Position numbers and translations under genes: made by a program. 64,000 nucleotides of DNA from Antedon mediterranea (lineage: Eukaryota > Animalia > Echinodermata), in contig NC_092676.1 in NCBI RefSeq assembly GCF_964355755.1, positions 5,681,888-5,745,887 on the forward strand. The letters are read 5' to 3'. Of the stretch, positions 34,321-63,628 are shown piece by piece. Each line of letters begins with the position of its first letter. Positions within the stretch are counted from its first letter, which is position 1. The notes beneath the pieces are model-generated. The model saw only the letters and a program-made list of their open reading frames with translations. It was not told the DNA's origin and made no database searches.

Positions 34321-34429
34321 CACATTCACACTAATGTTTTATTTTACGGAAGGGAAGACGGCGTCGTTATTTTTTACCAAAACGGTATCGTCTTCCGTTC
34401 CGTGAAATGGAATTTTGAATGGGAGTATT

Positions 34430-37191: not shown

Positions 37192-40100
37192 CTATGAGAG
37201 TAAAGTAAACTTGGCAAATGAATTTGAATAGTTATTTTTTTCGGAGGCCCAAATTGTTACTCTTCGATCCCTAAAATAATGAGTAAAGGTTTAGAATAGT
37301 CGAAGATTAATTGTGAAAGTACATTTTTATGATACTTTCGGATAAATAAGAATAATAAAATACTATCTGTTTATAAGCATAATAACACATCGAATATCAT
37401 GATTGTAACATAGCCGAATTAACTATTAATTTTAATATATCTATTTAAATTGAACATAATTAAAACATTTACCACATTCAAATTATCAAATGTAACTTAC
37501 TTAACTAAAACACCGACATATTTAACATTCAATAAAATTATTTACTGTACATATAGCAAAGAGAATAAATACTAATAGCTGCATAAGTTTGTATGAGCAT
37601 CTCTCATACTTCTATCATACTTACAATTCTTTTAAATTGTTCAGTTCTTCAAAAGTTCTATCTCTGTAATTCTGTAAGTTCTTCCCTTGTAACCATCTAT
37701 AGGATAACACATTAGAAATGAATTAGGAACAGGCTAATACATTTTGAAAAAAGTAAAGTTTTCAAACTATGGTTTATGTATGCTTTTCTTGAAGAAAATA
37801 CATTAACTATGTATATTTTAACTGTTATGAATCCTCTTTATCTTTATCTTTGAATGTGGTCTGTATATTTTTGTATTGTTTTTAAGAGGGCCTCTTCAAG
37901 TCAGCTGTACTGCTGTAGTACTGTTAGAGCTACCCTTGTAAAACAAATTTGAATGAATAAATAAATATATTAATATTTTATTTATCTGTACATAACACTA
38001 TTCTAAATTCAAGACCCCTGATGAAAACCAAATAAACTTTATTTGTTTACTTGTTTGCGAAGTTTTCCATTCAAATTCAGTGGTTGAATACATCCGTTGT
38101 GTTCGAAGTTCTTATTATTATTGTATGTTTTTTAACGTTTTGTACTGTAAGGCCTATAGAACGGATACATATAACTATTCAAATGCAAAGCTTCCTCACA
38201 TTTTGACATTGAATCGTACAGCAAAAACTTTATTTTTTATTTTATTTGTTTACAGCAATAACTCCTTTACGGCTTCACAAGTGTGTTATAAAATCATGTT
38301 AACTTACAAACGTGAAAGTGTTGAAGCAAAAGAAGAAAATGCACCTGGTTTTATGGTAGTTATAGCGTTTTCCTGTAAATACCTGTTAAGATAACCAATA
38401 TGTATTATTACATATCTTGTTTTTCACATTACATTAAGTAAAGTACAGATACAAGTATTATTGTATTACACATTGCATAATATTCAATACTCTCCTATAC
38501 ATTAATTCCTTGTCTCTTCTGGGTATTTTTTTTTTAATAAGGGGACAAAAAGTTTACTTTTTTATTGAATCTCATCAAATAATTGTTTGTTAATTATTGT
38601 TTGTTAATCTTAATATTCAATTGATTTTTTTACAACAATTGATAACACAGTGATTAGTAGACTGGTTATAATACAACAAATGTAAATTAGACTGGATCAT
38701 ATAGAAAGTAGTTCTGTTTCTGGGATGTACGTTTATTATATATATATGAATATTATCTACATAGTAAATTCTGATGGCCTGGGTATACTTTAATCAGGCT
38801 TAAATATATGTTTTATTTTGTTATTCTCATAAACACAATTTTTATAGGAAATCATAACAATTTGTTATCATCTTTATGTATTTAATAATACATAAAGATG
38901 ATAACAAATTGTTATGATTTCCTATTATTTAATTTACCTAAATAATGACCAATACACAATTATTAATATCTTTAAACAATGAATAATTTAATGAAAATTG
39001 TTAATACTGTATGTGATTTTTTTTTAAATACTGTTTTTTGATCAAATTATGAATGATAAACTGCATAATATTCATTATTATGAATTATTTCATTTGTTTT
39101 CTTTTTAAATAAATTAAAACAAACAAATTAATTTTAGAAAAATACTTACAGTTCTGTCAGTGCTGTCAATCTATCAAATACATTGGCTGGCAATGTACTT
39201 ATTTGGTTGCTGCTCAAACTCCTTCAAAATAAAAGAAAGGTACAGTAACAACTACAATATTCAAGTTGTTTTAAATGTCAACTTTTATTTTCGAAATACA
39301 TTTTGAATTATTTTAATAGTCTTTCAGTCAATGATAGGGACATTATCTACATAGTAAATGCTGACAAGTATTCTTTAATTAGGCAAAAATTAACTGTTAA
39401 AATAATAATGTGTTATTCTCATTATCACAAATTCTATAGAAAATTTTAAATATTTATTATCATCCAAATGTATTTAACATTTTATGTATTTAATTAAATC
39501 TCTAATGATCAATGAACAATTATAGATAATCTTTAAAAAATGAATAATTTATTAATAATGGTTAAATAATGTTACTGCATAATATTAAATGCTGATAAGT
39601 ATTCTTTAATTAGGTAAAAATTAACTGTTAAAATAATAATGTTTTATTCTCATTATCACAAATTCTATAGAAGATTCTTAATATTTATTATCATCTTAAT
39701 GTCTTTATCATTTTTATGTATTTAATTAAATCTCTTTAAATAATGATCAATGAACAATTATTGATAATCTTTAAAAAATTAATAATTTAATAACAATGCC
39801 AACAGCCATAAGTTGCGTAATAATATGCATAGTGATACCGGACCGACAGACCGACAGACCGACAGACAGACCGACCGACATAGGGAACTATAGAGTCGCG
39901 TCCACGCGACTAATAATGGTTAAATAATGTTACTGCATAATATTCAGTATTATAAATTATTTTATTATTTATTTTAAAACAAATTAAACGAAGGAATTAA
40001 TATGAGTCAAAATACTTACAGCTCTGTCAATGCTGTCAATCTATCAAATACATTGGCTGGCAATGTACTTATTTGGTTACCCCACAAATCCCTTCAAAGT

Positions 40101-43100
40101 AAAAACAATGTACAGTAACAATTACAATATTTAAGCTGTTTGATATGTCAACTTTTATTTTCGAAATACATTTTTGAATTATTTTAATAATCTTTCAGTC
40201 AATGATAAGGACATTATCTACATAGTAAATGCTGATGAGTATTCTTGAATTAGGCAAAAATTAACTGTTAAAATAATAATGTGTTATTCTCATTATCACA
40301 AATTCTATAGAAAATTCAAAATATTTATTATCTACTTAATGTATTTATCATTTTTATGTATTTAATTAAATCTCTTTAAATAATGACCAATAAAAAATTA
40401 TTGATAATCTTTAAAAAAATAAATAATTTATTAATAATGGTTAAATGTTACCGCATAATATTCAGTATTATAAATTATTTTATTATTTATTTAAAAACAA
40501 ATTCAACGAAGGAATCAATATGAGTCAAAATACTTACAGGCGTTTCAGTGCTATCAATCTATCAAATACATTGGCTGGCAATGTACTTATTTGGTTGCTG
40601 CTCAAACTCCTTCAAAATAAAAGAAAGGTACAGTAACAACTACAATATTCAAGTTGTTTGAAATGTCAACTTTTATTTTCGAAATACATTTTGAATTATT
40701 TTAATAGTCTTTCAGTCAATGATAGGGACATTATCTACATAGTAAATGCTGACAAGTATTCTTTAATTAGGCAAAAATTAACTGTTAAAATAATAATGTG
40801 TTATTCTCATTATCACAAATTCTATAGAAAATTTTAAATATTTATTATCATCCTAATGTTTTTAACATTTTATGTATTTAATTAAATTTCTAATGATCAA
40901 TGAACAATTATAGATAATCTTTAAAAAATGAATAATTTATTAATAATGGTTAAATAATGTTACTGCATAATATTCAGTATTATTAATTATTGTATTGTTT
41001 ATTTAAAAACAAATTAAACGAAGGAATTAATATGAGTCAAAATACTTACAATATTGTCAGTGCTGTCAATCTATCAAATGAATTGGCTGGCAATGTACGT
41101 ATTTTATTAAAGCCCCAATGCCTTCAAAGTAAAAACAATGTACAGTAACAATTACAATATTCAAGTTGTTTGATATTTCAACTTTTATTTTTCGATATAC
41201 ATTTTTGAATTATTTTAATAGTCTTTCAGTCAATGATAGGGACATTATCTACATAGTAAATGCTGATGAGTATTCTTTAACTAGGTAAAAATTAACTGTT
41301 AAAATAATAATGTGTTATTCTCATTATCACAAATTCTATAGAAGATTCTTAATATTTATTATCATCTTAATGTATTTATCATTTTTATGTATTTAATTAA
41401 ATCTCTTTAAATATTGACCAATGAACAATTATTGATAATCTTTAAAAAATTAATAATTTATTAACAAGGCCAACAGCCATAAGTTGCGTAATAAAATGCA
41501 TAGTGATACCGGACCGACAGACCGACAGACCGACCGACCGACATAGGGAACTATAGAGTCGCGTCCACGCGACTAATAATGGTTAAATAATGTTACTGCC
41601 TAATAATATTCAGTATTATAAACTATTTTATTATTTATTTTAAAACAAATAAAACGAAGGAATTAATATGAGTCAAAATACTTACAGTAATGTCAGTGCT
41701 GTCAGTCTATCAAATACATTGGCTGGCAATGTACTTATTTTGTTTCTGTACAAATCCCTTCAAAGTAAAAACAATGTGCAGTAACAATTACAATATTCAA
41801 GCTGTTTAGAATCTCAACTTTTATTTTCGATATACATTTTTGAATTATTTTGTATAGTCTTTCAGTCAATGATAGGAACATTATCTACATAGTAAATGCT
41901 GATGAGTATTTTTTATTTAGGCAAAAAGTAACTGGTAAAATGATAATGTGTTATTCTCATTATCACAAATTCTATAGAAAATTCAAAATATTTATTATCA
42001 TCTTAATGTATTTATCATTTTTATGTATTTAATTAAATCTCTTTAAATAATGATCAATGAACTTTTATTGATAATCTTTACAAAAAATGAATAATTTATT
42101 AATAATGGTTAAATGTTACCGCATAATATTCAGTATTATAAATTATTTTATTATTTATTTAAAAACAAATTAAACGAAGGAATCAATATGAGTCAAAATA
42201 CTTACAGCCATGTCAATGCTGTCAATCTATCAAATACATTGGCTGGCAATGTACTTATTTGGTTGATTCTCAAACTCCTTCAAAATAAAAGAAAGGTACA
42301 GTAACAACTACAATATTCAAGTTGTTTGAAATGTCAACTTTTATTTTCGAAATACATTTGGAATGATTGTAATAGTCTTTCAGTCAAAGATAGGGACATT
42401 ATCTACATAGTAAATGCTGATAAGTATTCTTTAATTAGGCAAAAATTAACTGTTAAAATAATAATGTGTTATTCTCATTATCACAAATTCTATAGAAAAT
42501 TCAAAATATTTATTATCATCTTAATGTATTTATCATTTTTATGTATTTAATTAAATCTCTTTAAATAATAATCAATGAACAATTATTGATAATCTTTAAA
42601 AATGAATAATTTATTAATAATGGTTAAATAATGTTACTGCATAATATTCAGTAGTATAATTTATTTTATTATTTAATTAAAAACAAATTAAACGAAGGAA
42701 TTGATATGAGTCAAAATACTTACAGATGTGTCAGTGCTGTCAATCTATCAAATACATTGGCTGGCAATGTGCTTATTTGGTTATTGTACAAAAACCTTCA
42801 AAGTAAAAACAATGTACAGTAACAATTACAATATTCAAGCTGTTTGATATGTTAACTTTATTTCTCATATACATTTTGAATTATTATAATAGTTTTTCAG
42901 TCAATGGTAGGGACATTATCTACATAGTAAATGCTGATGAGTATTTTTTAATTAGGCAAAAATTAACTGTTACAATAATAATGTGTTATTCCCATTATCA
43001 CAATTTCTGTAGAAAATAATTCTAAATATTTATTATCATCTTCATGTATTTATCATTTTTATGTATTTAATTAAATCTTTTTAAATAATGATCAATGAAC

Positions 43101-44331
43101 AAGTATTGATAATCTGTAAAAAAGGAATAATTTATTAATAATGGTTAAATAATGTTACTGCATAATATTCAGTATTATAAATTATTTTCTTATTTATTTA
43201 AAAACAAATTAAACGAAGGAATTAATATGAGTCAAAATACTTACAGGTGTGTCAATGCTGTCAATCTATCAAATACATTGGCTGGCAATGTACTTATCCG
43301 GTTAAAACTCAAATCCCTTCAATGTAAAAGAAAAGTACATTAACAATTACAATATTTGATATTCCATTCATACAGGTATAGGCCTACAGTGATTGTGCTT
43401 GGGGTATATAAAGTGACCCCACAAAATGAAATTATTTCTGATAACTCTAAGTACTAAATTTCAAATTGTCATTAGGTCATTATTACATATTTTAAAATAT
43501 ATATTATATATATTTTTAAATTCCACGTTTTATAATAAACTTACAATGAAATGTTTGCACTGACAATAACCATATACTTACAACTCTGTTACTGGAATAT
43601 GATCATTATACTCGTTGATGGTTGCGATGTTATTAATACTCCATGGAGGACGACATTCCACTCTGTGACCGTAAGTAGACCAATTAGGCGCACCACATTC
43701 ACAGTCGGCTGGACATTCTGCATTTGGACAACTCGGAGATACATCAGGAAAGAAAAAGGGGAAACTGTCTTGTATTCAAAATATATGTAGTGTTACAAAT
43801 GCAATCAAATCAAATATAATGTCTAGCTGTGACCGCTCAATTAAATATAATTCGAATCAGATAAAAAAAAATGAATTCACAATCACGTAAAAATAAATAC
43901 TGTATAGTACTGTATATAAACAAAAGTTGAACATTAACATTTAAATCAGATTGTCTTCGAAGTTTAATAACAGTACTGTTGTTTTAAACCAACAAAACAG
44001 TATAGTTTGTATGAGGCATACTGTTCAAAGACAGGGCTAAAACATACTAACAAATAGTATCAAATACTAAACAGTTAGTTAATGAAAATAACACACTCAT
44101 TAGTATAATTATTATACTGTATTACTTATCAATGCATAAAGAAAATTTAAAGAATGAAGCAATCATACCGGAAAGGGCGAAGTCACTGCCACTACTATCA
44201 TAGTCAGACTGATAAGTGTAAATGGTAAAGTTACCAGAATAACTGAAATAGTAACTAAAACAACGAGAACAAGGTAATACAGCCAATATAACAATACAAT
44301 ACAGTAGTATGATTCCTCTCAAGATGAACAT
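36177..44331 (-). CDS. LRR-containing GPCR (type C LGR, RXFP/GRL101-like), copy 1, ~695 aa, 13 coding exons
   Basis: Exons in transcript order: 44331-44169 (signal peptide MFILRGIILLYCIVILAVLPCSRC), 43768-43582 (LRRNT CPADCECG...VEC), eight 72-nt LRR exons (43316-43245, 42795-42724, 42277-42206, 41757-41686, 41121-41050, 40609-40538, 40091-40020, 39221-39150), 38382-38308, 37696-37625, 37191-36177 (hinge + 7TM). All GT-AG; total 2088 nt in frame. The exon 1/2 junction is the least certain. Confidence 0.9.
37625..37696 (-). CDS. LGR copy 1 last LRR exon (72 nt)
   Basis: WLQGKNLQNYRDRTFEELNNLKEL, AG/GT flanks, phase 2-2. Confidence 0.9.
38308..38382 (-). CDS. LGR copy 1 penultimate LRR exon (75 nt)
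   Basis: YLQENAITTIKPGAFSSFASTLSRL, AG/GT flanks, phase 2-2. Confidence 0.9.
39792..39913. mobile_element. Small Helentron/DINE-like insertion in an array intron
   Basis: aacaa..ccaacagccataagttgcgt, (gacc/gaca)n microsatellite, terminal hairpin agtcgcg-tcca-cgcgact; interrupts the standard intron unit. Confidence 0.65.
41463..41576. mobile_element. Second copy of the Helentron/DINE-like insertion at the homologous intron position
   Basis: Same sequence and insertion point as 39792-39913, with a shorter microsatellite. Confidence 0.65.
43582..43768 (-). CDS. LGR copy 1 exon 2: LRR N-terminal cap
   Basis: SFPFFFPDVSPSCPNAECPADCECGAPNWSTYGHRVECRPPWSINNIATINEYNDHIPVTEL; gtaagt donor, phase 2. 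Acceptor is either 43768 (phase 1) or 43764 (phase 2). Confidence 0.85.
44169..44331 (-). CDS. LGR copy 1 exon 1: signal peptide and Ser/Tyr-rich N-terminus
   Basis: aagATG, hydrophobic core IILLYCIVILAVL; donor G|gtatga is phase compatible with exon 2. Confidence 0.75.
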
Positions 44332-44676
44332 CTTCTTCAATCGTAATCAATTTAATAAACTTTACTTCTGCGAGTCCACTCAGTATATGAACAATATACT
44401 TTGTTACTATCTTTATTTACCTGTATTTATTAAACTTTTTTTAAAATATTAAACATTTAGATACCGTCACCGGATGCATTAATAAAATTATGAGTTGTTA
44501 ATATTTTATAATATTTTTTTATCCATGTGAGCACAAGATTTTTAAAACACATGGACCCAGAATTGTTGAAAAGTGCTAAGTTTGATTAAAGAGAATACAT
44601 TTTGTAGGTATAATCTAGACTGGGTGCTAAGCGAATAACAAACAAATGGGAGAAGGTGGTATCTGAAAAGTTAGAA

Positions 44677-47675
44677 ATAGATGGTACGCTCGCTTCGCTC
44701 GCGTACCATCTAGGTCGTGCCCACAGATGGTTCTCGAATACACTGTAATTTCAGGGTAAAAAATCTGGCGATTTCAAATGCACGTACCGCAGGACTATAA
44801 TACATTGTCGTTTACAGAAACGAATAAGTAGACACAATGATTTATGTAGTCAACCAAAATTAGCACCCTGGGAATTACTTCCGAAAGAGAAACTTACCAC
44901 AAAATGAGTCCAAATTGTTTATTCATTTAAAGAAACCCAATTAGGGTTGAGGGATGGGAAAGAGGATAGGTACAAAGAGGAACAATTTTTAAATATATTC
45001 TTTATCCACGTCAGTAACGAAATATTGTTTTCATTTTTTATAGGCCTATAAATAATATACCACTAACGGTGACTAAATATAGTAAAACATTTGCGATTTA
45101 ATAATTTGTTAAAACTGTCACTGTCATAGTCGATTGAAATAGTAAAGTACATGTAACAATACACCACTACGACGTTTATATTTTTTGTAATTATTAATTA
45201 ATGCAAACGTTGAGAAGCAACTGTCAGTAATAAAGTTTATTTGTATATTACGTGTGTATATATCTAACAGTAGAGCCTACCCATAATCACACTAATAAAG
45301 TTTATTTGTATATATTTTTTTACATCTAACAGTATTCACAGTAAGAAATGTTTGTATATATTTTTTTACATCTAACAGTATTCACAGTAAGAAATGTTCG
45401 ATTCAAATGACGACCAAAAATGGTTAATATGTATTTGCAGTACTGTATTGTCAAAGTATTGCAAGTTTATTCTCCAAGGGCTCATAAATTTACCTACTTG
45501 TGTTAAACCAAACTGGCAGACTGAGAGATTGGAATGTTCCATTCATCGCAAATCAATACATTTGTAAAAACGTAAATTAAATCTATCAAAATATTATTTT
45601 TTAAAGAAAATCGGCCTGTCTTCAACATTATGATGCTGTACTCGAGCAGTTCAACCGGTTTTCAGCTATTAAAAACAATTATCGTAGGAGGAGATAGGAA
45701 AATACGAAGCGTCCTCGTATTATTGTGTGCGGGTATTTTTCAAGTTGGACATCCATTAGACAGTGTATACCACGATCGGAAAACACCCCTATTTGGGGCA
45801 AATCGTTGAACCTAAATTCGTTTTAATCGTCAATAACTAATTATCTAACTCAATTTAATTAGTAAACAGGGTTACATCAGGTGGTTAAAATCAGTACCGA
45901 AAGTATGAACCAACTTTATATACCATCGAGTAAAAATTCTAGAAATAAACCGCGTTTTATCGAATTTTGCCCTTACGTAAATTTATATAACTAGATGGCA
46001 CGCTCGCTTCGCTCGCGTACCATCTAGGTCGTGCCCACAGATGGTTCTCGAATACACAGTATTTCCAGCGAGAAAAAAATGGAGATATCAAATGTACGTA
46101 CCGCAGGACTATAATACATTGTCGTTTACAGAAACGAATAAATATACACAATGATTTATGTAGTCAACCAAAATTAGCACCCTGGGAATTACTTCCGAGA
46201 GAGAAACAAAATGAGTCAAATTTTTTTATTTGGACTCATTTAAACAAACCCAATTTGTGTTTTGTATGTAACATTAAGGGTTGAGGGATGGGGGAAGAAT
46301 ATAGGTACAAAGAGGAAACATTTTAAAATATATTCTTATCCACTCAGTAACGAAATATTGTTTTTAATGTTTTATAGGCCTATAAATAATATACCACTAA
46401 ATACAGTAAAACATTTACGATTTAATACGGTACTTTGTTAAAACTCTCACTGTCATAGTCGATTGAAATAGTAAAGTACATGTAACGATACACCACTACG
46501 ACGTTTATATATTTTTAAATTATTAATTAATACAAACGTTGAGAAGCAACTGTCAGTAATAACGTTTATTTATTTGTATATTATATGTTTATAATCTAAC
46601 AGCAGGGCCTACCCACACTCACAGTAATAAAGATTATTTGTATATATTTTTATATTACATCTAACAGTACCAACACTCACAGTAAGAAATTTGCGATTCA
46701 AATTGCGATCAAAAGTGGTTAATACCTTAACAGTATTGTACAGCATTGCAATACTATTTATGTTTATTCTCCAAGGGGGCCCATAAATCTAAATCTATAC
46801 CTCTATGGTTAAACCAAATAATTTGGAATGTTTATTTGTATATTATATGTTTATAATCTAACAGTAGGGCCTACCCACACTCACAGTAATAAAGTTTATT
46901 TGTATATATTTTTATATTACATCTAACAGTACCAACACTCACAGTAAGAAATTTGCGATTCAAATTGCGATCAAAAGTGGTTAATACCTTAACAGTATTG
47001 TACAGCATTGCAATACTATTTATTTTTGTGGATTTTTACTTTTATGTTAAACCAAGACAACGAAAAGGAATAAAATTACCTTCGTGACGTTTCGCCGACA
47101 ATCTGTCAGCTGCTTCAGACTAATGCCTGGGTTGGAATACTATTTATGTTTATTCTCCAAGGGGGCCCATAAATCTAAATATATACCTGTATGGTTAAAC
47201 CAAATAATTTGGAATGTTCCATTCATCACAAATCAATACATTTGTAAAAACGTATATTAAATGTATCAAAATAGTATTTTTTAAAGAAAATCGGCCTGTC
47301 TTCAACATTATGATGCTGTACTCGAACTGTTCAACCGGTTTTCAGCTATTAAAAACAATTATCGTAGGAGGAGATAGGAAAATGCGAAGCCTCCTCGCAT
47401 TTTTGTGGCGGGTATTTTTCAAGATGGACATCCATTAGACAGTGTATACCACGATCGGAAAACACCCCTATTTGGGGCAAATCGTTGAACCTAAATTCGT
47501 TTTAATCGTCAATAACTAATTATCTAACTTAATTTAATTAGTAAACAGGGTTACATCAGGTGGTTAAAATCAGTACCGAAAGTACGAACCAACTTTATAT
47601 ACCATCGAGTAAAAATTCTAGAAGTAAGGCGCGATTTACCGAATTTTGCCCTTACGTAAATTTATATATAGAAGA
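44677..47675 (-). mobile_element. Head-to-tail dimer of a non-autonomous Helitron (44677-45990 and 45991-47675)
   Basis: On -: 5' a|TCTTCTATATATA, 3' hairpin tagatggtacgc-gagcgaagcga-gcgtgccatCTAG. The two units are collinear. The element is absent from the paralogous site at ~31565-31590. Confidence 0.8.
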
Positions 47676-48678
47676 TTCCTAATACTGTATAGAGGTCGTT
47701 ATATTATTGCACATTTTGATTCATATCTATATAAAACAAGCTTATGACGATTATTTTTCATGTTTTTCTTTTAATTAAAGTAAAAATTATTTTGTTTCAG
47801 TTTTAGGTAAAATAGGGAAGTAGTTAAAAGTAAAGAATACTGATTGGTAAGCAGGAGCTGAAATTAACAGAAAAAAAATTACAGGTGTAAATCAGTGTAA
47901 GAAATAAAGTTGACGCAGGTATAACAATCACATGTGTATTTCTAATATAGATGTAGGTGTTATTATGAATTACGCATATAACATAATGAATTTGATGAAG
48001 TATTGATCGTTGTAATCAAAGTTAAAAATACGCAGGTGGAACGCCATTGCCACGTCAGCCAATCAACGACTGACAACGGTAAATGAAGATTCAGCCAATA
48101 AAATTTAAGCAGAAACATGTTAATTTTTTAGTGAAATGTGTTATGGTCATTATCAAAGCCATTTTGCTATGTGCATAATTGATAACAATGCACTAACATT
48201 ATTTTCATATGTCACAACTTTAAATCGATATATTGAATTCAAATTGTTCGTCTTTTCGATGCTACAGATTTGAGATTTTGTTTTGAAAATTCCCAGATTT
48301 GTGTACTATTAGTTAGTTTAAAATGTAAATATCTTTTCAACTACATTATTTTCTTTATATTTCTTACGAGCTTTCCTATGTTAATCTTTTATAGGTGATG
48401 ATATTCCGATCCTGTTGGAAATAAGTCCTTGTGTACTTTGATATCTTGGCTTAACCACCCCCTCCCCCGGATATACGCTGTGTTGACGTTTACAAGAAAA
48501 ATGATAACTTTACTGTTATGTTCATAACCCTTTACCGGTACGCCTTTCTTGTTTTGTTTTTCAATTCCTGGCTGCTTGATACTCTTAAAAAATTAATTTT
48601 CTGCTATACGTTTATACATTTATAGCTTGTCTCCCTCTAATTAAAGACCGATATACGCGATTTAATAAGTACTATTAA

Positions 48679-49007
48679 AGATGTAATTGTCCGCCTATAT
48701 TTTTTTCAAAATGTTTGGTTGAATATGCCATCCTAATTTCACATAATAGTTATCCATTTTTACCAAAAATTGGATCGAAAAAAAAAATTATTTATCCGAA
48801 AAAACTGTAATTTAAAGCAAACATAGTCAGCCAATGGATTTTTGGTTGTATAGGCTATAACCATTTTTTTGTCATTTCATAAGTGAAAACATTGTTTTTT
48901 CCTCTTTTTTTTTCTACTGAAGTGATTAACTTTATTAAAACTACAAAATAATTAAAAGTCTTATTTAAGTAATCTTCATTTTTCATGTTTTTGGGGACAA
49001 TACATAT
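48679..49007. mobile_element. Kolobok-like TIR element (family B), paralogue of 32747-33280 without the nested MITE
   Basis: ttaa|agatgtaattgtcc ... ggggacaatacatat|ttaa. Confidence 0.65.
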
Positions 49008-51334
49008 TTAATAGTAAAGGATTATTTAAACACTGTTTTATGTTTGTACCGTATAACCTCATAATATGTAATAGTTTATTTCATCTGTTTTGTTTTACTA
49101 TCAAATGTTATTTCGTTCGGACCCCATAATTGATGCATGGCTTACACAGTTCTCATTATATAACTTACAAATTTATCCAAAGATTGTTTTATCTTTGTTT
49201 AAAGTTTGTTTTGTTGACGTTTTATATATTATTATAATTTTAATAAGGAGTTTTTTTATATAAGGAGTTATAGTTAACTCCTTGTTACTATCCTGTTTCT
49301 TATTGTATATTATCATCCTTTCCTTCTCCTACGTTTTTGTATCTCGAGTATCTCTAAAACGTGTACACATAACATTTCATAATTTTGTCAACATTTGAAC
49401 ATTTACATTTGTATATTGTATATCTTATATTGATGATATGCAGCAGAAACTTCCAATAGTTAGGCTAATGTTGCCCATTAAGTTGTAAGGTTGATCGTGA
49501 AAATCAAAACGATAATGAATATTATCACTAGCGTTCTGATTTTTACCAGCTTATAGCAACCCATTCATGGAATGATAAAGAAATCTATCTGTACGGCGAC
49601 TGTAGAATAAACCCGAGATATGCCTTACTTCTTACTACTTTTTAGACGATAAAAGATTAGAATATTTTGTATAGTAAAGAGTTATACAATGCATACTGTA
49701 CGTTTTATTTTTAATAAATTGTGCAATTTGCGGTATTTACCATTATTATCAATATTGCCAGCCACGTTTTACATATTCAATATTGATCTTGACCTACCCA
49801 CCAAAGTTATCGATCACTCTGCTAATAATATCATGAAACAAACTAAAATTACATTCACACGAATATTTTATTTTACGGAAGGGAAGACGGCGTCGTTATT
49901 ATTTACCAAAACGGTATCGTCTTCCGTTCCGTGAAGTATAATGTAAGCGGTATCCGGATAAATAACTAAGCCTGTGTCCTATGATTTAAGTGAGCATACG
50001 ATCGTTGGTAAAAGTTACTGCAAGCTGTATGTTAAAGCAACACTAAGAAGACAGAAAACATCTTAATATACTGTGTGGAGCAAGCTGTGTGTGTCATTTG
50101 GCGGAGCAACCTCACGATAAAGAAATATTGTATGTATAGTTTTTTGGCGAACTGTGTTGTGTTGTTTTTGTTTGAAAACTCAAATTATAACACAATGCCC
50201 TCTTCTTTATTTTCTTAATGCTGCTTTTAATAGCAATACAAATATTAATGACAATCAAGTAAGAACATAATATAAATAATGGAATAACAGAATAATACTG
50301 TATATCGGAAGTTTGATTAAATACTCCTTAAGTTGTTCGCATTTAAGTTTGATACTCCTTAAGTTACTTTTAAAATTCCTTAATCTTACAAAAGTAGTAC
50401 GTCAAAACATTCCCAAGCAAAATGAATCAATTCCTTCTTCTTTAAATCTACTAAATCGTCAAATAATTAATAATATTACAAAAATTGTCGAATTGTTTAA
50501 ATCTACCTAAATCTTCACATTATTTTACGTAACGGAAAATTTCAGTAAATCGAGCCTTAACTTCTTAAGTCTTTACTCAATGGTACATTGCATACTTCAG
50601 AACCAATTTTTACCAATTTAAAACAACTTTGTCAAAAAGTATTCGTTTTTGTGCACAAATTTTCAAACAAATAAAGATTCACAAACTCACTTATAATGTA
50701 TACAAAATACAATTAAACTTAAATCGATGAAATTCAACACATTGTGATCAGATATTCAAAATAATTAATCATTATTAAGAATGTATGTTTAAGTTTTTAG
50801 CTTAAATTTAATTCACGTTTTATCACATTGTTCTTTTCATACCTATCTAACATACAATCATCACCATATCTGGTTAAATTTAAATTGTCTTAGTACAGTA
50901 TAAGTAAAGTGTTAAATAAAATTGATTTAGAAACAATGAAATAAAATTTGATACTTCCATAATATTATTTACTTGTCATATGCGTATTTAAACGTTAAGC
51001 AAATAAATATCGTTTTTACAGATGTCAAACAACTTGATAGGTTAACTCGAGAAATTAAAAGCCATTAAATAATTTATCAAGTGTATTGTTATAAACCAGT
51101 GAACGTATATAGGACTGATAAAATCCTAAGATATAAACGAACAGTGTTTGAAAATTTTAACTTAACGTTCTGTATAATATTTGAAATAGATTACAATAAA
51201 TTTAAACCATTGTTATAAAATATATAATACATTTAAATCCCAAAGCGGGTGCTAAAGATTACATGAATACGATAAATGAACATTTAATAGGCAAAAACAA
51301 GACCAAAGTGTAGAGTTTGCACAATACAATTAAA

Positions 51335-52349
51335 TTACAATGTATTAAGTGGAATCTGTACAACTGCCGGTTGACGCACTTTGCACTTAAACATATATAC
51401 AATTGTGTAAAGATAAGGATTGACTGAGGAGTTGATGGGGATGATGAATGTCGCCGCCCAAGCATATATGTCATCAGGAATTGTCATCCAACCCATCTCA
51501 GAACCAATTGCCATTACTATAATCGGACCCCAGCAACAGAAATCTGTGAAAACTATTAAGCCTAGTTTCCTCACCATTTTCAACTGTTCTTTCCTCATCT
51601 GTCGTCTATTGACAGTGGCCCCCGATCTCTTAACCGATAAGAAGATTACGAGGTAGCTCACTGTTATTACAATGAACCCGATTCCGTTAAATACAACAAA
51701 CATGGCGACTGCATACTCCCAGCCTTGCCAATGACTTTTTGTCAGAGGTAGTGCGAGGCACACACTCTCTTTGCCATAGTAATTATCCCCAAAATATGAA
51801 ATATCTGTTATTGGAAGAAAACTCAGCACAATCCAGAAAAGCCATGCGAAGCCGATAATGATTCGACATTTTGTACGATTGAGGCGTTTCGTACTAAATG
51901 GATTAACAATGTTAATAGCTCGATCCACACTCAGCAGCATCAGTGTAAACACTGAGCATTGCCCAGAGAGTGTAGAAATTGCCCCGGCAAAGCTGCAAAG
52001 GAAACTGCTCTTCCAATCCCTTGCAACTTTGGCATACCGTCCACGATAGTGTACATCCACACTCGCAATGATGATTAAGTAGACAGCCATTAGCAAGTCA
52101 GACACGGCAAGATTAGTAATGAGTGTGGTTTGAACCTTATTTACATTGTTACCTGAATCATTATCCTTTTTAAACTTTCGTGATATGATGACAATCAAAT
52201 TTCCAATGACTGATGACACCCCAATGATCATCATCAATACACGGAGAACTTCGCTTTTTAGTAAGTCTTCACAAGAAGCAAATGCATCAACGGGTTCGCA
52301 GACATCAATGACACCAACAAGGCAACAGAGACGAGAAAAATCCGATTTC
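51335..52349 (-). CDS. LGR copy 2 terminal exon: hinge + 7TM
   Basis: Near-identical to copy 1. Three visible aa changes: SAD>SVD, MAR>MVR, YVW>YAW; stop TAA. Confidence 0.97.
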
Positions 52350-55300
52350 CTATGAGAGAGTAAAGTAAACTTGTCAAATGAATTTGAATAGTTATTTTTT
52401 TCGGAGGCCCAAATTGTTACTCTTCGATCCCTAAAATAATGAGTAAAGGTTTAGAATAGTCGAAGATTAATTGTGAAAGTACATTTTTATGATACTTTCG
52501 GATAAATAAGAATAATAAAATACTATCTGTTTATAAGCATAATAACACATCGAATATCATGATTGTAACATAGCCGAATTAACTATTAATTTTAATATAT
52601 CTATTTAAATTGAACATAATTAAAACATTTACCACATTCAAATTATCAAATGTAACTTACTTAACTAAAACACCGACATATTTAACATTCAATAAAATTA
52701 TTTACTGTTCATATAGCAATAAGAATAAAACAGTAGCTGCATAAGTTTGTATGAGAATCTCTCATACTTTTATCATACTTACAATTCTTTTAAATTGTTC
52801 AGTTCTTCAAAAGTTCTATCTCTGTAATTCTGTAAGTTGTTCCCTTGTAACCATCTATAGGATAACATATTAGAAATAAATTAAGAATAGGCTAATACAT
52901 TTTGAAAATAGTAAAGTTTTAAAACTATGGTTTATGTATGCTTTTCTTGAAGAAAATACATGAACTATGTATATTTTAACTGTTATGAATCCTCTTTATC
53001 TTTATCTTTGAATTTGGTCTGTATATTTTTGTATTGTTTTTAAGAGGGCCTCTTCAAGTCAGCTGTACTGCTGTAGTACTGTTAGAGCTACCCTTGTAAA
53101 ACAAATTTGAATGAATAAATAAATATATTAATATTTTATTTATCTGTACATAACACTATTCTAAATTCAAGACCCCTGATGAAAACAAAATACACTTTCT
53201 TTGTTTACTTGTTTGCGAAGTTTTCCATTCAAATTCAGTGGTTGAATACATCCTTTGTGTTCGAAGTTCTTATTATTATTGTATGTTTTTACGTTACGTT
53301 TTGTACTGTAATGCCTATAGCACTGATACATATAACTATTCAAATGCAAAGCTTCCTCACATTTTGACATTGAATCGTACAGCAAAAACTTTATTTTTTA
53401 TTTTATTTGTTTACAGCAATAACTCCTTTACGGCTTCACAAGTGTGTTATAAAATCATGTTAACTTACAAATGTGAAAGTGATGAAGCAAAAGAAGAAAA
53501 TGCACCTGGTTCTATGGTAGTTATAGCGTTTTCCTGTAAATACCTGTTAAGATAACCAATATGTATTATTATATATCTTGTTTTTCACATTACATTAAGT
53601 ACAGTACAGATACAAGTATTATTGTATTACAAATTGCATAATATTCAATACTCTCATATACATTAATTCCTTGTCTATTCTGGGTATTTTTTTTTTAATA
53701 AGGGGACAAAAAGTTCACTTTTTTATTGAATCTCATCAAATAATTGTTTGTTAATTATTGTTTGTTAATCTTAATATTAAATTGATTTTTTTTACAACAA
53801 TTGATAACACAGTGATTAGTAGACTGGTTATAATACAACAAATATAAATTAGACTGGATCATAATAATAGAAAGTAGTTCTGTTTCTGGGATGTACGTTT
53901 ATTATCTACATGTAAATGCTGATGGCCTGGGTATACTTTAATAAGGCTTAAATATATGTTTTATTTTGTTATTCTCATAAACACAATTTTTATAGGAAAT
54001 CATAACAATTTGTTATCATCTTTATGTATTTAATAATATAGTTATTTAATTTACCTAAATAATGACCAATACACAATTATTAATATCTTTAAACAATGAA
54101 TAATTTAATGAAAATTGTTAATACTGTATGTGATTTTTTTTTTAAATACTGTGTTTGTTGATCAAATTATGAATGATAAACTGCATTATATTCATTGTTA
54201 TGAATTATTTCATTTGTTTTCTTTTTAAGTAAATTAAAACAAATAAATTAATTTTAGAAAAATACTTACAGTTTTGTCAGTGCTGTCAATCTTTCAAATA
54301 CATTGGCTGACAATGTACTTATTTGGTTATAACCCAAATGCCTTCAAAGTGAAAACAATGTACAGTAACAATTACAATATTCAAGCTGTTCGATATGTCA
54401 ACTTTTATTTTCAATATACATTTTTTAAATATTTGTATAGTCTTTCAGTCAATGATAGGGACATTATCTACATAGTAAATGCTGATGAGTATACTTTAAT
54501 TAGGCAAACATAAACTATAATGGTTAAATAATGTTAATGCATAATATTCAGTATTATAAATTATTTTATTATTTATTTCAAAAACAAATTTAACGAAGGA
54601 ATTAATATGAGTCAAAATACTTACAGTAATGTCAGTGCTGTCAATCCATCAAATACATTGGCTGGCAATGTACTTATTTGGTTACGGTTCAAATACCTTC
54701 AAAGTAAAAGAAAGATACAGTAACAATTACAATAGTCAAGTTGTTTGAAATGTCAACTTTTATTTTAGATATATATTTTTGAATTATTTGTATAGTCTTT
54801 CAGTTAATGATAGGGACATTATCTACATAGTAAATGCTGATGAGTATTCTTTAATTAGGCAAAAATTAACTGTTAAAATGACAATGTTTTATTCTCATTA
54901 TCACAAATTCTATAGAAAATTCTAAATATTTATTATCATCCTAATGTATTTAACATTTTATGTATTTAATTAAATCTCTAATGATCAATGAACAATTATA
55001 GATAATCTTTAAAAAATGAATAATTTATTAATAATGGTTAAATAATGTTACTGCATAATATTCAGTATTATAAATTATTTTATTATTTATCTAAAAACAA
55101 ATTAAACGAAGGAATTAATATGAGTCACAATACTTACAGTTCTCTTAGTGCTGTCAATCTATCAAATACATTGGCTGGCAATGTACTTATTTGGGTACGG
55201 TTCAAATACCTTCAAAATAAAAGAAAGATACAGTAACAATTACAATATTCAAGCTGTTTGATATGTCAACTTTTATTTTAGATATACATTTTTGAATTAT

Positions 55301-58300
55301 TTGTATAGTCTTTCAGTTAATGATAGGGACATTATCTACATAGTAAATGCTGATGAGTATTCTTTAATTAGGCAAAAATTAACTGTTAAAATGATAATGT
55401 GTTATTCTCATTATCACAAATTCTATAGAAAATTCTAAATATTTATTATCATCCTAATGTATTTAACATTTTATGTATTTAATTAAATCTCTAATGATCA
55501 ATGATCTTTAAAAAATGAATAATTTATTAATAATGGTTAAATAATGTTACTGCATAATATTCAGTATTATAAATTATTTTATTAATTATTTATTTAAAAA
55601 CAAATTAAACGAAGGAATTAATATGAGTCAAAATACTTACAGTTTTCTCAGTGCTGTCAATCTATCAAAAACATTGGCTGGCAATGTACTTATTTTGTTA
55701 GCATTCAAAGTCCTTCAAAGTAAAAACAATGTACAGTAACAATTACAATATTTAAGCTTTTTGATATGTCAACTTTTATTTTCGAAATACATTTTGAATT
55801 ATTTTAATAGTCTTTCAGTCAATAATAGGGACATTATCTACACAGTAAATGCTGATGAGTATTCTTTAATTAGGCAAAAAGTAACTGTTAAAATAATAAT
55901 GTGTTATTCTCATTATCACAAATTCTATAGAAGATTCTAAATATTTATTATCATCTTAATGTATTTATCATTTATATGTATTTAGTTAAATCTCTTTAAA
56001 TAATGACCAATGAAAAATTATTGATAATCTTTAAAAAATGAATAATTTATTAATAATGGTTAAATAATGTTACTGCATAATATTCAGTATTATAAATTAT
56101 TTTATTATTTATTTAAAAACAAATTAAACGAAGGAATTAATATGAGCAAAATACTTACAGGATTGTCAGTACTGTCAATCTATCAAATACATTTGCAGGC
56201 AATGTACTTATTTTGTTCCAGCCCAAACTCCTTCAAAGTAAAAGAAAGATACAGTAACAATTACAATATTCAAGTTGTTTGACATGTCAACTTTTATTTT
56301 TCTTATACATTTTGAATTATTTTTTATTGTCTTTCAGTCAATGATAAGGACATTATCTACATAGTAAATGCTGATGAGTATTCTTTAATTAAGCAAAAAG
56401 TAACTGTTAAAATAATAATGTGTTATTCTCATTATCACAAATTCTATAGCAAATTCTAAATATTTATTATCATCTTAATGTATTTATCATTTTTATGTAT
56501 TTAATTAAATCTCTTTAGATAATGATCAATGAACAATTATTGATAATCTTTAAAAAATGATTAATTTATTAATAATGGTTAAATAATGTCACTGTATAAT
56601 ATTCAGTATTATAAATAATTTTATTATTTATTTAAAAACAAATTAAACGAAGGAATTAATATGAGAAAAATACTTACAGTCCTGTCAGTGCTGTCAATCT
56701 ATCAAATACATTGGCTGGCAATGTTCTTATTCTGTTACCATGCAAATACCTTCAAAGTAAAAACAATGTACAGTATCAATTACAATATTCAAGTTGTTTG
56801 ATATGTCAACTTTTATTTTCGATATACATTTTTGAATTATTTGTATAGTCTTTCAGTCAATGATAGGGACATTATCTACATAGTAAATGCTGATGAGTAT
56901 TCTTTATTTAGGCAAAAATTAACTGTTAAAATAATAATGTGTTATTCTCATTATCACAAATTCTATAGCAAATTCGAAATATTTATTATCATCCTAATGT
57001 ATTTATCATTTAAATGTATTTAATTAAATCTCTTTAAAAAATGACCACTCAAACCCCTTCAAAATAAAAGAAAGGTGCAGTAACAAGTACAATGTTTGAT
57101 ATTCTATTCATACACAATGAACTGTAAAAATTACAATAATATTCAAGCTGTTCGATATGTCAACTTTTTCTTTTTTTATACATTTTTAATTATTTTTATT
57201 GTCTTTCAGTCAATGATAGGGACATTATCTACATAGTAAATGCTGATAAGTATTCTTTAATTAGTCAAAAATTAACTGTTAAAATAATAATGTGTTATTC
57301 TCATTATCACAAATTCTATAGCAAATTCTAAATATGTATTATCATCTTAATGTATTTATCATTTTTATGTATTTAATTAAATCTCTTTAGATAATGATCA
57401 ATGAACAATTATTGATAATCTTTAAAAAAATGATTAATTTATTAATAATGGTTAAATAATGTTACTGTATAATATTCAGTATTATAAATAATTTTATTAT
57501 TTATTTAAAAACAAATTAAACGAAGGAATTAATATGAGAAAAATACTTACAGTAATGTCAGTGCTGTCAATCTATCAAAAACATTGGCTGGCAATGTACT
57601 TATTTGGTTAAAGTCCAAATACCTTCAAAGTAAAAAATAATGTACAGTATCAATTACAATATTCAAGTTGTTTGATATGTCAACTTTTATTTTCGATATA
57701 CATTTTTGAATTATTTGTATAGTCTTTCAGTCAATGATAGGGACATTATCTACATAGTAAATGCTGATGAGTATTCTTTATTTAGGCAAAAATTAACTGT
57801 TAAAATAATAATGTGTTATTCTCATTATCACAAATTCTATAGCAAATTCGAAATATTTATTATCATCCTAATGTATTTATCATTTAAATGTATTTAGTTA
57901 AATCTCTTTAAATAATGACCAATGAACAATTATTGATAATCTTTAAAAAATGAATAATTTATCAATAATGGTTAAATAATGTTACTGCATAATATTCAGT
58001 ATTATAAATTATTTTATTATTTATTTAAAAACAAATTAAACGAAGGAATTAATATGAGTCAAAATACTTACAGATGTGTCAGTGCGGTCAATCTATCAAA
58101 TACATTGGCTGGCAATGTACGTATTTGGTTGCTGAACAAATACCTTCAAAGTAAAAGAAAGATACAGTAACAATTACAATATTCAAGCTGTTTGAAATGT
58201 CAACTTTTATTTTTCTTATACATTTTGAATTATTTTATAGTCTTTCAGTCAATGATAGGGACATTATCTACATAGTAAATGCTGATGAGTATACATTAAT

Positions 58301-61300
58301 TAGGCAAAAATTAACTGTTAAAATAATAATGTGTTATTCTCATTATCACAAATTCTATAGCAAATTCTAAATATTTATTATCATCCTAATGTATTTAACA
58401 TTTTATGTATTTAATTAAATCTCTAATGATCAATGATCTTTAAAAAATGAATAATTTATTAATAATGGTTAAATAATGTTACTGCATAATATTCAGTATT
58501 ATAAATTATTTTATTAATTATTTATTTAAAAACAAATTAAACGAAGGAATTAATATGAGTCAAAATACTTACAGTTTTCTCAGTGCTGTCAATCTATCAA
58601 AAACATTGGCTGGCAATGTACTTATTTTGTTAGCATTCAAAGTCCTTCAAAGTAAAAACAATGTACAGTAACAATTACAATATTTAAGCTTTTTGATATG
58701 TCAACTTTTATTTTCGAAATACATTTTGAATTATTTTAATAGTCTTTCAGTCAATAATAGGGACATTATCTACACAGTAAATGCTGATGAGTATTCTTTA
58801 ATTAGGCAAAAAGTAACTGTTAAAATAATAATGTGTTATTCTCATTATCACAAATTCTATAGAAGATTCTAAATATTTATTATCATCTTAATGTATTTAT
58901 CATTTATATGTATTTAGTTAAATCTCTTTAAATAATGACCAATGAAAAATTATTGATAATCTTTAAAAAATGAATAATTTATTAATAATGGTTAAATAAT
59001 GTTACTGCATAATATTCAGTATTATAAATTATTTTATTATTTATTTAAAAACAAATTAAACGAAGGAATTAATATGAGCAAAATACTTACAGGATTGTCA
59101 GTACTGTCAATCTATCAAATACATTTGCAGGCAATGTACTTATTTTGTTCCAGCCCAAACTCCTTCAAAGTAAAAGAAAGATACAGTAACAATTACAATA
59201 TTCAAGTTGTTTGACATGTCAACTTTTATTTTTCTTATACATTTTGAATTATTTTTTATTGTCTTTCAGTCAATGATAAGGACATTATCTACATAGTAAA
59301 TGCTGATGAGTATTCTTTAATTAAGCAAAAAGTAACTGTTAAAATAATAATGTGTTATTCTCATTATCACAAATTCTATAGCAAATTCTAAATATTTATT
59401 ATCATCTTAATGTATTTATCATTTTTATGTATTTAATTAAATCTCTTTAGATAATGATCAATGAACAATTATTGATAATCTTTAAAAAAATGATTAATTT
59501 ATTAATAATGGTTAAATAATGTCACTGTATAATATTCAGTATTATAAATAATTTTATTATTTATTTAAAAACAAATTAAACGAAGGAATTAATATGAGAA
59601 AAATACTTACAGTAATGTCAGTGCTGTCAATCTATCAAAAACATTGGCTGGCAATGTACTTATTTGGTTAAAGTCCAAATACCTTCAAAGTAAAAAACAA
59701 TGTACAGTATCAATTACAATATTCAAGTTGTTTGATATGTCAACTTTTATTTTCGATATACATTTTTGAATTATTTGTATAGTCTTTCAGTCAATGATAG
59801 GGACATTATCTACATAGTAAATGCTGATGAGTATTCTTTATTTAGGCAAAAATTAACTGTTAAAATAATAATGTGTTATTCTCATTATCACAAATTCTAT
59901 AGCAAATTCGAAATATTTATTATCATCCTAATGTATTTATCATTTAAATGTATTTAGTTAAATCTCTTTAAATAATGACCAATGAACAATTATTGATAAT
60001 CTTTAAAAAATGAATAATTTATCAATAATGGTTAAATAATGTTACTGCATAATATTCAGTAATATAAATTATTTTATTATTTATTTAAAAACAAATTAAA
60101 CGAAGGAATTAATATGAGTCAAAATACTTACAGATGTGTCAGTGCGGTCAATCTATCAAATACATTGGCTGGCAATGTACGTATTTGGTTGCTGAACAAA
60201 TACCTTCAAAGTAAAAGAAAGATACAGTAACAATTACAATATTCAAGCTGTTTGAAATGTCAACTTTTATTTTTCTTATACATTTTGAATTATTTTATAG
60301 TCTTTCAGTCAATGATAGGGACATTATCTACATAGTAAATGCTGATTATCATCTTAATGTATTTACCATTTAATGTATTTAATTAAATCTCTTTAAAAAA
60401 TGACCACTCAAACCCCTTCAAAATAAAAGAAAGGTGCAGTAACAAGTACAATGTTTGATATTCTATTCATACACAATGAACTGTAAAAATTACAATAATA
60501 TTCAAGCTGTTCGATATGTCAACTTTTTTCTTTTTTTATACATTTTTAATTATTTTTATTGTCTTTCAGTCAATGATAGGGACATTATCTACATAGTAAA
60601 TGCTGATAAGTATTCTTTAATTAGTCAAAAATTAACTGTTAAAATAATAATGTGTTATTCTCATTATCACAAATTCTATAGCAAATTCTAAATATTTATT
60701 ATCATCTTAATGTATTTATCATTTTTATGTATTTAGTTAAATCTCTTTAGATAAGGATCAATGAACAGTTATTGATAATCTTTAAAAAAATGATTAATTT
60801 ATTAATAATGGTTAAATAATGTTACTGTATAATATTCAGTATTATAAATAATTTTATTATTTATTTAAAAACAAATTAAACGAAGGAATTAATATGAGAA
60901 AAATACTTACAGTCCTGTCAGTGCTGTCAATCTATCAAATACATTGGCTGGCAATGTACTTATTTTGTTATCACCCAAACTCCTTCAAAGTAAAAACAAT
61001 GTACAGTATCAATTACAATATTCAAGTTGTTTGATATGTCAACTTTTATTTTCGATATACATTTTTGAATTATTTGTATAGTCTTTCAGTCAATGATAGG
61101 GACATTATCTACATAGTAAATGCTGATGAGTATTCTTTATTTAGGCAAAAATTAACTGTTAAAATAATAATGTGTTATTCTCATTATCACAAATTCTATA
61201 GCAAATTCGAATTATTTATTATCATCCTAATGTATGTCAACTTTTTTCTTTTTTTATACATTTTTAATTATTTTTATTGTCTTTCAGTCAATGATAGGGA

Positions 61301-63628
61301 CATTATCTACATAGTAAATGCTGATAAGTATTCTTTAATTAGTCAAAAATTAACTGTTAAAATAATAATGTGTTATTCTCATTATCACAAATTCTATAGC
61401 AAATTCTAAATATTTATTATCATCTTAATGTATTTATCATTTTTATGTATTTAGTTAAATCTCTTTAGATAATGATCAATGAACAATTATTGATAATCTT
61501 TAAAAAAATGATTAATTTATTAATAATGGTTAAATAATGTTACTGTATAATATTCAGTATTATAAATAATTTTATTATTTATTTAAAAACAAATTAAACG
61601 AAGGAATTAATATGAGAAAAATACTTACAGTCCTGTCAGTGCTGTCAATCTATCAAATACATTGGCTGGCAATGTACTTATTTTGTTATCATTCAAACTC
61701 CTTCAAAGTAAAAACAATGTACAGTAACAATTACAATATTTAAGCTTTTTGATATGTCAACTTTTATTTTCGAAATACATTTTGAATTATTTTAATAGTC
61801 TTTCAGTCAATAATAGGGACATTATCTACACAGTAAATGCTGATGAGTATTCTTTAATTAGGCAAAAAGTAACTGTTAAAATAATAATGTGTTATTCTCA
61901 TTATCACAAATTCTATAGAAGATTCTAAATATTTATTATCATCTTAATGTATTTATCATTTATATGTATTTAGTTAAATCTCTTTAAATAATGACCAATG
62001 AAAAATTATTGATAATCTTTAAAAAATGAATAATTTATTAATAATGGTTAAATAATGTTACTGCATAATATTCAGTATTATAAATTATTTTATTATTTAT
62101 TTAAAAACAAATTAAACGAAGGAATTAATATGAGTCAAAATACTTACAGATGTGTCAGTGCTGTCAATCTATCAAATACATTGGCTGGCAATGTGCTTAT
62201 TTGGTTACCGTACAAATACCTTCAAAGTAAACATATATACTTATACATTTTGAATTATTTTAATAGTCTTTCAGTCAATGATAGTGACATTATCTACATA
62301 GTAAATGCTGATGAGTATTCTTTATTTAGGCAAAAAGTAACTGTTAAAATGATAATGTGTTATTCTCATTATCACAAATTCTATAGAAAATTCAAAATAT
62401 TTATTATCATCTTAATGTATTGATCATTTTTATGTATTTAATTAAATCTCTTTAAATAATAATCAATGAACAATTATTGATAATCTTTAAAAAATGAATA
62501 ATTTATTAATAAATACTGGTTAAATAATGTTACTGCATAATATTCAGTATTATAAATTATTTTATTATTTATTTAAAAACAAATTACACGAAGGAATTAA
62601 TATGAGTCAAAATACTTACAGCTGTGTCAGTGCTGTCAATCTATCAAATACATTGGCTGGCAATGTGCTTATTTGGTTACTGTTCAACCTCCTTCAAAGT
62701 AAAAACAATGTACAGTAACAATTACAATATTCAAGCTGTTTGATATGTCAACTTTTATTTTCGGTATACATTTTTTTTTAATTATTTGTATAGTCTTTCA
62801 GTCAATGATAGGGACATTATCTACATAGTAAATGCTGATGAGTATTCTTTAATTAGGCAAAAATTAACTGTTAAAATAATAATGTGTTATTTATTATCAC
62901 AAATTCTATAGTAAATTCTAAATATTTATTATCATCTTTATGTATTTATCATTTTTATGTATTTAATTAAATCTCTATAATGACCAATGAACAATTATCG
63001 ATAATCTTTTAAAAATGAAAAATGTATGAATAATGGCCTCTTCAAGTCAGCTGTATACTGCTCTAGTACTCTTATAGATACCATTGTAAAACAAATTTGA
63101 ATTAATAAATAAATTTATTTTTTATAGCAAATTCTAATTATTATTTGTTTTATTATTATCCTAATGTTTTATTATCATTTATCATTTATTATCTACATAA
63201 TAAATACTGATGGCCTGGGTATACTTTAATTAGGCTAAAATATATGTTTTATTTTGTTATTCTCATGAACATAATTTTTATAGGAAATCATACAAATTTG
63301 TTATCATCTTTATGTATTTAATAATATAATTATTTAATTTACCTAAATAATGACCAATAAACAATTATTAATATCTTTAAACAATGAATAATGTAATGAA
63401 AATTGTTAATACTGTATGTGATTTTTTTTTAAATACTGTGTTTGTTGATCAAATTATGAATGATAAACTGCATTATATTCATTGTTATGAATTATTTCAT
63501 TTGTTTTCTTTTTAAGTAAATTAAAACAAATAAATTAATTTTAGAAAAATACTTACAGTTTTGTCAGTGCTGTCAATCTATCAAATACATTGGCTGGCAA
63601 TGTACTTATTTGGTTACTGTTCAACCTC
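51335..63628 (-). CDS. LRR-containing GPCR (type C LGR, RXFP/GRL101-like), copy 2, 5' end outside the window
   Basis: Terminal exon 52349-51335 (1015 nt, as in copy 1), LRR exons 52854-52783 and 53543-53469, and 17 array exons of 72 nt with low coordinates 54270, 54625, 55138, 55641, 56159, 56678, 57551, 58072, 58573, 59091, 59611, 60132, 60911, 61629, 62148, 62620, 63557. All open with AG/GT flanks. Confidence 0.9.
52783..52854 (-). CDS. LGR copy 2 last LRR exon
   Basis: WLQGNNLQNYRDRTFEELNNLKEL. Confidence 0.9.
53469..53543 (-). CDS. LGR copy 2 penultimate LRR exon
   Basis: YLQENAITTIEPGAFSSFASSLSHL. Confidence 0.9.

Follow-up and report, generated by a model that had tools for sequence, protein, structure and literature searches.

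Two tandem GRL101-like receptor genes in a crinoid carry homogenised leucine-rich repeat exons with diversity focused on four predicted binding-face codons

In the ROCO LRR-GTPases of the brown alga Ectocarpus siliculosus, each 24-residue leucine-rich repeat (LRR) is coded by a single 72-nucleotide exon in a shuffled array, recently duplicated loci are nearly identical outside the LRR region, four concave-face sites are positively selected under model M8, and inactivated exons are found in introns (as described in the relevant parts of PMC3341825). Fungal NLR receptors offer a second parallel: the HET-E/nwd WD40 arrays of Podospora, and arrays of ANK and TPR repeats, undergo concerted evolution within and between genes, vary in repeat number and are under diversifying selection at a few interaction-face positions, four in the case of WD repeats (PMC4986451, in the portion available to us). 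Here we describe two receptor genes, A and B, in a 64,000-nucleotide stretch of the Antedon mediterranea genome (NC_092676.1, positions 5,681,888 to 5,745,887, forward strand; hereafter the window, in which all positions are numbered from 1). We consider it quite probable that these are tandem GRL101-like G-protein-coupled receptors (GPCRs), the ectodomains of which evolve by recombination among repeat units plus selection at four positions per repeat; that judgement does not extend to the class of ligand.

The algal proteins differ from those of Antedon in their host, their intracellular GTPase output and their plant-type repeat consensus (Zambounis et al., PMC3341825), the Antedon genes being animal, extracellular, of VLR-type consensus and with a seven-transmembrane (7TM) output, and having introns that are homogenised too. 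The fungal repeats adopt other folds and belong to cytoplasmic NOD receptors with a demonstrated role in non-self recognition, and per-repeat exon-intron units, a feature of the Antedon arrays, are not described for them in the sections of PMC4986451 available to us. The Antedon array exons conform to the 24-residue LRRV consensus of variable lymphocyte receptors (VLRs; PMC4731796, in part). However, VLRs are described there as LRR-only proteins, whereas in the Antedon genes a 7TM exon follows in frame, and VLRs are put together from cassettes in somatic cells, in a process resembling conversion (PMC3900441 and PMC12264053, in the parts consulted), whereas gene A is complete in the germline assembly and split by introns. 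A likeness to VLRs, proposed in a preliminary description of this stretch, is thus true of the repeat unit but not of the genes, which resemble the VLR module and work like the ROCO and fungal NLR systems, yet are no VLRs. Among LRR-containing GPCRs (LGRs), the type C group of RXFP1 and GRL101 shares the order of signal peptide, LRRs, short hinge and 7TM (parts of PMC4079206, PMC6267866 and PMC12297450), and the SudRes2 region of Biomphalaria shares a clustered, lineage-specific expansion (PMC12297450). Gene A differs from them in that no LDLa or C-type lectin module was found in it, and the Antedon repeats differ in being homogenised and positively selected. Our search of the open-licence literature returned no report of homogenised, positively selected LRR exons in an LGR or any other GPCR.

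The core repeat occurs in 25 copies on the minus strand, 8 in one group and 17 in another (Table 1). They do not form a single array but are divided between two genes 11 kb apart. All 25 exons are 72 bp long, stop-free and in phase 2 at both ends, with canonical splice sites (acceptor ...TGAAG, donor GTAAGTAT), such that one exon equals one 24-residue LRR with its first leucine split by the intron. Units are spaced by 501-521 bp in 15 of 23 cases and by 355-937 bp in the others, and mean column identity among repeats is 82%. Twenty-one of the 25 exons are distinct, the four exact duplicates all lying in gene B. Core positions are broken in two exons, at 41050-41121 (minus strand; Leu2 to Trp plus Val14 to Ser) and 55138-55209 (minus strand; Asn5 to Thr), which may be decaying or skipped.

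Diversity within the unit is sharply localised. Per site it reaches 0.60 at codons 1, 3, 4 and 23, against 0.17 at codons 6, 8 and 22, 0.049 at the other 17 (scaffold) codons and 0.065 in the intron (440 homologous columns with insertions and non-homologous flanks masked; 0.13 unmasked). Codons 1, 3, 4 and 23 contain every one of the unit's eight most variable columns, and 7 of the 440 intron columns exceed 0.5. These values confirm the earlier claim that variation is concentrated in coding codons over a homogenised background, and diversity at these codons is well above that of the intron. The residues then listed for codons 1, 3, 4, 6, 22 and 23 likewise match exactly, but codon 22 is no more diverse than the background and codon 6 merely intermediate. 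Nine synonymous-capable sites interleaved with the variable codons have a mean diversity of 0.06, as in the intron. No four-residue variable signature is common to arrays A and B. At the variable positions, residues exceed an AT-rich neutral expectation both for aromatics (25 of 84 against 16) and for Asp plus Arg (13 of 84 against 5).

The homogenised background bears marks of exchange. Across 69 informative intron and scaffold sites, pairwise incompatibility is 0.06 between near sites and reaches 0.27 farther apart, a degree of order that no permutation out of 2000 equalled, supporting the concerted evolution that had been proposed. Upstream and downstream flank distances are almost unrelated (rho 0.11; 262 of 300 pairs, those with both flanks comparable), and intron distance is as large within genes (0.072 in A, 0.060 in B) as between them (0.070). 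The units at 59611 and 56678 show no difference in 438 intron positions and 10 differences in 72 exon positions. Several structures are traces of unequal exchange: a repeated four-exon block inside the gene B array, twin dead exon heads (Table 1), an element of about 120 bp with GACCGACA repeats at the same intron site in two gene A units (39790-39913 and 41463-41579), and a terminal-type intron at 63035-63556, where an internal gene B unit is followed by that intron and a deletion skips the 75-bp exon region. The last suggests that the gene B array was lengthened by joining another copy's 3' end. The 120-bp element is probably a high-copy repeat, because its contigs far exceed the surrounding depth in all four runs. 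By sequence, then, genes A and B appear to be repeat receptors under concerted evolution, with exchange within and between genes at high repeat identity.

Site models in our own implementations, applied to 21 distinct exons (one of each identical pair dropped) on two trees, indicate positive selection under a shared synonymous rate. The M1a/M2a, M7/M8 and M8a/M8 comparisons are all significant (p <= 2e-20; M8a rejected at p <= 1e-21), with the ratio of non-synonymous to synonymous rates (omega) at 13.1-14.0, and a posterior of 1.0 for the positive class of M2a and M8 is attained at codons 1, 3, 4 and 23 only; codons 6 and 22, named earlier alongside these four, lie outside it. Allowing double and triple mutations leaves omega at about 12-14 (p <= 1.4e-11, four trees), and a free-recombination conditional-sampling model that gives each codon its own genealogy, run both with and without the identical exons of gene B, yields an omega of 21-28 (p <= 1e-12). 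The scaffold is under purifying selection, because its proportion of non-synonymous differences (pN, 0.028) is below that of synonymous differences (pS, 0.11).

Several observations weigh against this picture. When the four codons are given a synonymous rate of their own, dN/dS falls to 1.5-2.2 on fixed trees (p 0.07-0.39) and to 1.5-3.1 under free recombination (p 0.23-0.6), Nei-Gojobori counts at these codons give a pS of 0.51 against a pN of 0.62, and pairs sharing a residue use different codons in 28 of 101 cases there against 252 of 3604 elsewhere. Four codons are too few to fix a synonymous rate of their own, which under free recombination differs from neither the background nor dN. Tree-based site tests are inflated by recombination, the alignment spans only 23 codons, and the four identical exon pairs of gene B could be an assembly duplication. 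Placement of the binding face relies on AlphaFold single-sequence models of two Antedon paralogs, which stand in for the spliced proteins of the window, and the gap between concave and convex variability is 0.1 or less in 6 of 13 profiled proteins. The simulations discussed below, of conversion among 25 units, are crude and, like the model code, self-written. The diversifying selection proposed earlier is therefore upheld by M7 against M8 but is not significant once the codons have their own dS, and a dN/dS at or below one is only partly dispelled, because that last test is not significant.

We consider it unlikely that the variable codons owe their origin to mutation at a locally elevated rate or to targeted diversification, whether or not selection also acts. 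On fixed trees the synonymous rate at the four codons is 7-10 times the background (p 1e-5 to 0.06), although the excess loses its significance once free recombination is allowed (p 0.05-0.23), and large exon differences between units with identical flanks would also be expected from such a process. However, at codon 1 the first two bases are saturated, whereas 23 of 25 exons have T at the third. In simulations, block hypermutation raises neighbouring synonymous sites to 0.27 against the 0.06 observed, regional hypermutation matches the quiet codons 2 and 5 in none of 20 runs, and hypermutation limited to the codons matches the excess of first and second over third positions in none of 30. Targeted diversification in its regional form, one of the options raised in the preliminary description, is thereby disfavoured. 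Accelerated amino-acid substitution matches the same excess in 13 of 30 runs, and a mixed model (omega 12, mutation raised fourfold) in 8 of 30. The same-residue statistic is matched by selection alone in only 3 of 30 runs, a shortfall that counts against selection as the sole cause, and by the mixed model in 7 of 30, so that the mixed model fits the statistics at least as well as selection alone; both give a mean diversity of 0.51-0.55, slightly under that observed. No single account does better than positive selection acting on new substitutions, beside which a modest local mutation excess may play a part.

Very unlikely, in our estimation, is that old variants were kept by selection rejecting the conversions that would erase them, with little new substitution. 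Such resistance to conversion attains the observed diversity (0.63-0.64) and naturally leaves identical flanks around different exons, but it carried linked synonymous sites to 0.17 or more in 12 of 12 runs, against 0.06 observed, unless splicing constraint on neighbouring sites masks that hitchhiking signal. It may contribute, because a weak version combined with accelerated substitution fits. Hardly credible is neutral drift through relaxed constraint at exposed positions, or an assembly artefact, even though variability at these positions is common to all LRR proteins, units so alike are difficult to assemble, and the assembly may have placed two haplotypes in tandem as A and B. Drift predicts diversity at the level of the intron; neutral conversion gave a mean of 0.057 and a maximum of 0.17 in 25 runs, against 0.60, and M8a is rejected. 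Sequencing errors would break the frame, whereas all 25 exons are in frame and variation follows codon position, and contigs from four public runs, representing two organisms, cover the gene A region.

The four variable positions are predicted to lie on or beside a beta-strand of the concave face, the sheet taken as the ligand face in PMC4731796 (as far as the consulted parts of that paper go). The best solved matches of the exon profile are an engineered LRRTM, repebodies and VLRs, in exact 24-residue register. In the model of paralog P0155 (mean pLDDT 79) the strand runs from position 23 to position 3; position 4 falls in the turn that comes next, position 6 lies on the flank and position 22 immediately before the strand; in that of P0087 (mean pLDDT 66) the strand is shorter, from 23 to 1. 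In the P0155 model, the concave-strand placement proposed earlier would therefore hold for 23, 1 and 3, but not for codon 4 or codon 6. Positive selection would accordingly act on a few positions of a binding face that has been placed from models. In Foldseek a hagfish VLR comes at rank 36, behind the Nogo receptor, LRRTM2 and LGR5, and the fold is thus not specific to VLRs. When a paralog LRR region served as protein query, the matches were generic LRR proteins and uninformative.

Variability was also profiled, at the protein level and from automated gene models, in 13 fetched proteins with at least five recognised repeats. P0155, with 12 repeats on a different scaffold, is the clearest independent repeat of the pattern, with a heterozygosity of 0.80 at the variable positions against 0.25 at eight convex positions; P0083 and P0087 show the same excess of concave over convex, more weakly. 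The GRL101-like protein P0116 of Amphiura filiformis has about 12 similar repeats in a row, with a scaffold of its own, possibly an independent, older homogenised array.

As to the identity of the receptors, the 7TM exons match Pfam 7tm_1 (E 3e-33) and, among solved structures, relaxin receptor 1 (RXFP1; E 5e-46), FSHR (6e-33) and LGR4 (6e-15); their reading frames carry what we take to be DRY-like and NPxxY motifs. The closest named proteins are GRL101-like receptors of Antedon mediterranea itself. In a FastTree phylogeny of 161 7TM regions (matches covering at least 240 query residues), both genes fall in an Antedon-only clade of 30 tips (support 1.0) within a crinoid-only clade of 45 tips, with 12 Anneissia proteins as sister. 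Since P0001 and P0146 are the products of the two genes themselves, the 30 tips amount to 28 distinct proteins, and the Antedon clade would thus hold at least 28 receptors. Judged on sequence, genes A and B are most probably LGRs, and LGRs of type C, the relaxin receptor/GRL101 group. The strict definition of GRL101, or type C2, calls for multiple N-terminal LDLa modules (PMC4079206, in part). Exons 1 and 2 of gene A have no Pfam match, and thus no detected LDLa module, so gene A is type C-like yet not a strict GRL101. Using LDLa-bearing paralogs as queries, no LDLa exon was matched within the window, the 5' end of gene B lying outside it.

The mechanism we propose begins with the unit itself: symmetric one-repeat exons and near-identical introns would allow unequal crossover and conversion to add, drop and swap repeats in frame. 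Recombination among these exon-plus-intron units of about 520 bp would keep introns and scaffold codons alike, while selection would purge scaffold changes and favour new binding-face residues at four positions per repeat, probably acting mainly by speeding new substitutions, beyond resisting homogenisation. Every receptor would thus likely come to present a binding surface of its own to an outside ligand that changes quickly. Judging from other LGRs, ligand binding at the LRR face would be transmitted to the 7TM domain by way of the short hinge. Taken together, the interpretation offered in the preliminary description is partly supported.

Whether this ligand is microbial or parasite-derived, and the receptors immune-related, seems to us about an even chance. 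Granted the mechanism, it is possible, if the less favoured option, that the ligands are instead chemical cues or conspecific molecules, such as gamete signals, settlement signals or insulin-like peptides. In starfish, a GRL101-like gene shows enrichment in the sensory tentacles, and insulin-like peptides have been suggested as ligands of type C2 LGRs (both from the parts consulted of PMC6267866). Against this, a conserved hormone would be an improbable cause of an omega greater than 10 or of repeat numbers ranging from 8 to at least 17, a schistosome-resistance region of a snail holds a cluster of 12 GRL101-like genes (PMC12297450), and an amphioxus protein that has VLR-type repeats uses its concave face to bind Gram-positive bacteria (PMC4731796). 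A bolder and rather unlikely extension is that crinoids possess a VLR-like repertoire coupled to G proteins, with dozens of LDLa-less LGR genes and many antibody-like surfaces per animal or cell; exon skipping or somatic exchange would then combine the symmetric one-repeat exons. The usual view of type C LGRs is that they are receptors for hormones or peptides. The Antedon clade suggests that a basal echinoderm uses GPCRs for variable recognition, offers a specific hypothesis on the snail GRL101-like cluster tied to parasite resistance, and names four residues per repeat as testable binding positions.

Table 1. Features of receptor genes A and B, with positions in the window
Feature	Position	Strand	Remark
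Gene A exon 1, start codon and predicted signal peptide, phase-1 end	44169..44331	-	hydrophobic N-terminus
Gene A exon 2, putative cysteine-rich LRR N-terminal cap	43582..43768	-	from Cys spacing
Gene A array, 8 homogenised 72-bp LRR exons, introns of ~445 bp; hypervariable codons 23, 1, 3, 4	39150..43316	-	
Gene A penultimate LRR exon, 75 bp, outside array homogenisation	38308..38382	-	
Gene A last LRR exon, Lys replacing conserved Asn	37625..37696	-	
Gene A final exon, short hinge and intact rhodopsin-class 7TM	36177..37191	-	
Gene B array, at least 17 LRR exons (13 distinct), 5' end outside window	54270..63628	-	
Gene B penultimate LRR exon, 75 bp	53469..53543	-	
Gene B last LRR exon	52783..52854	-	
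Gene B hinge and 7TM exon	51335..52349	-	
Dead exon head, intact acceptor, ~4 codons, then fused to intron	60400..60415	-	
Dead exon head, second copy, identical across the 30 nt printed	57041..57056	-	
Segmental duplication yielding genes A and B	31592..54516	.	31592-39395 similar to 47675-54516

The model of gene A is open from end to end (670 residues, or 695 counting the 75-bp exon), and would place signal peptide, LRRs, hinge and 7TM in one reading frame, with splicing predicted from the exon boundaries. The 75-bp exon type also occurs in named paralogs, and the junction into the final exon agrees with that of the named paralog P0145. A frameshift ahead of the hinge was only apparent, and is gone when the downstream acceptor is used. 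At position 37681, contigs from four runs all show the Asn base where gene A has Lys, but the source of these contigs may be gene B or some paralog. Both genes are presumably expressed and spliced as modelled. In a run presumed to be RNA, introns were covered and none of the joints shown (15 of 58) was an exon-exon joint, and the run is uninformative on expression. The public protein records of the two genes, P0001 and P0146, comprise 299 residues from the 7TM part only and are without the LRR arrays; the variable ectodomains are therefore invisible in current annotation.

Self-comparison of the window gives 94.5% identity across 4.6 kb for the main block of the segmental duplication. Between the 7TM exons of A and B, 8 of 1014 nucleotides differ, four of these changes being non-synonymous and four synonymous, including one in the stop codon. 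Elsewhere in the window, exon-like frames at 16928-20061 (plus strand) resemble what we take to be a tetraspanin gene, with transmembrane segments and a CCG motif, and unrelated tandem repeats lie at 20049-20904 (period 163), 34064-34320 (period 42) and 7583-7935 (period 21).

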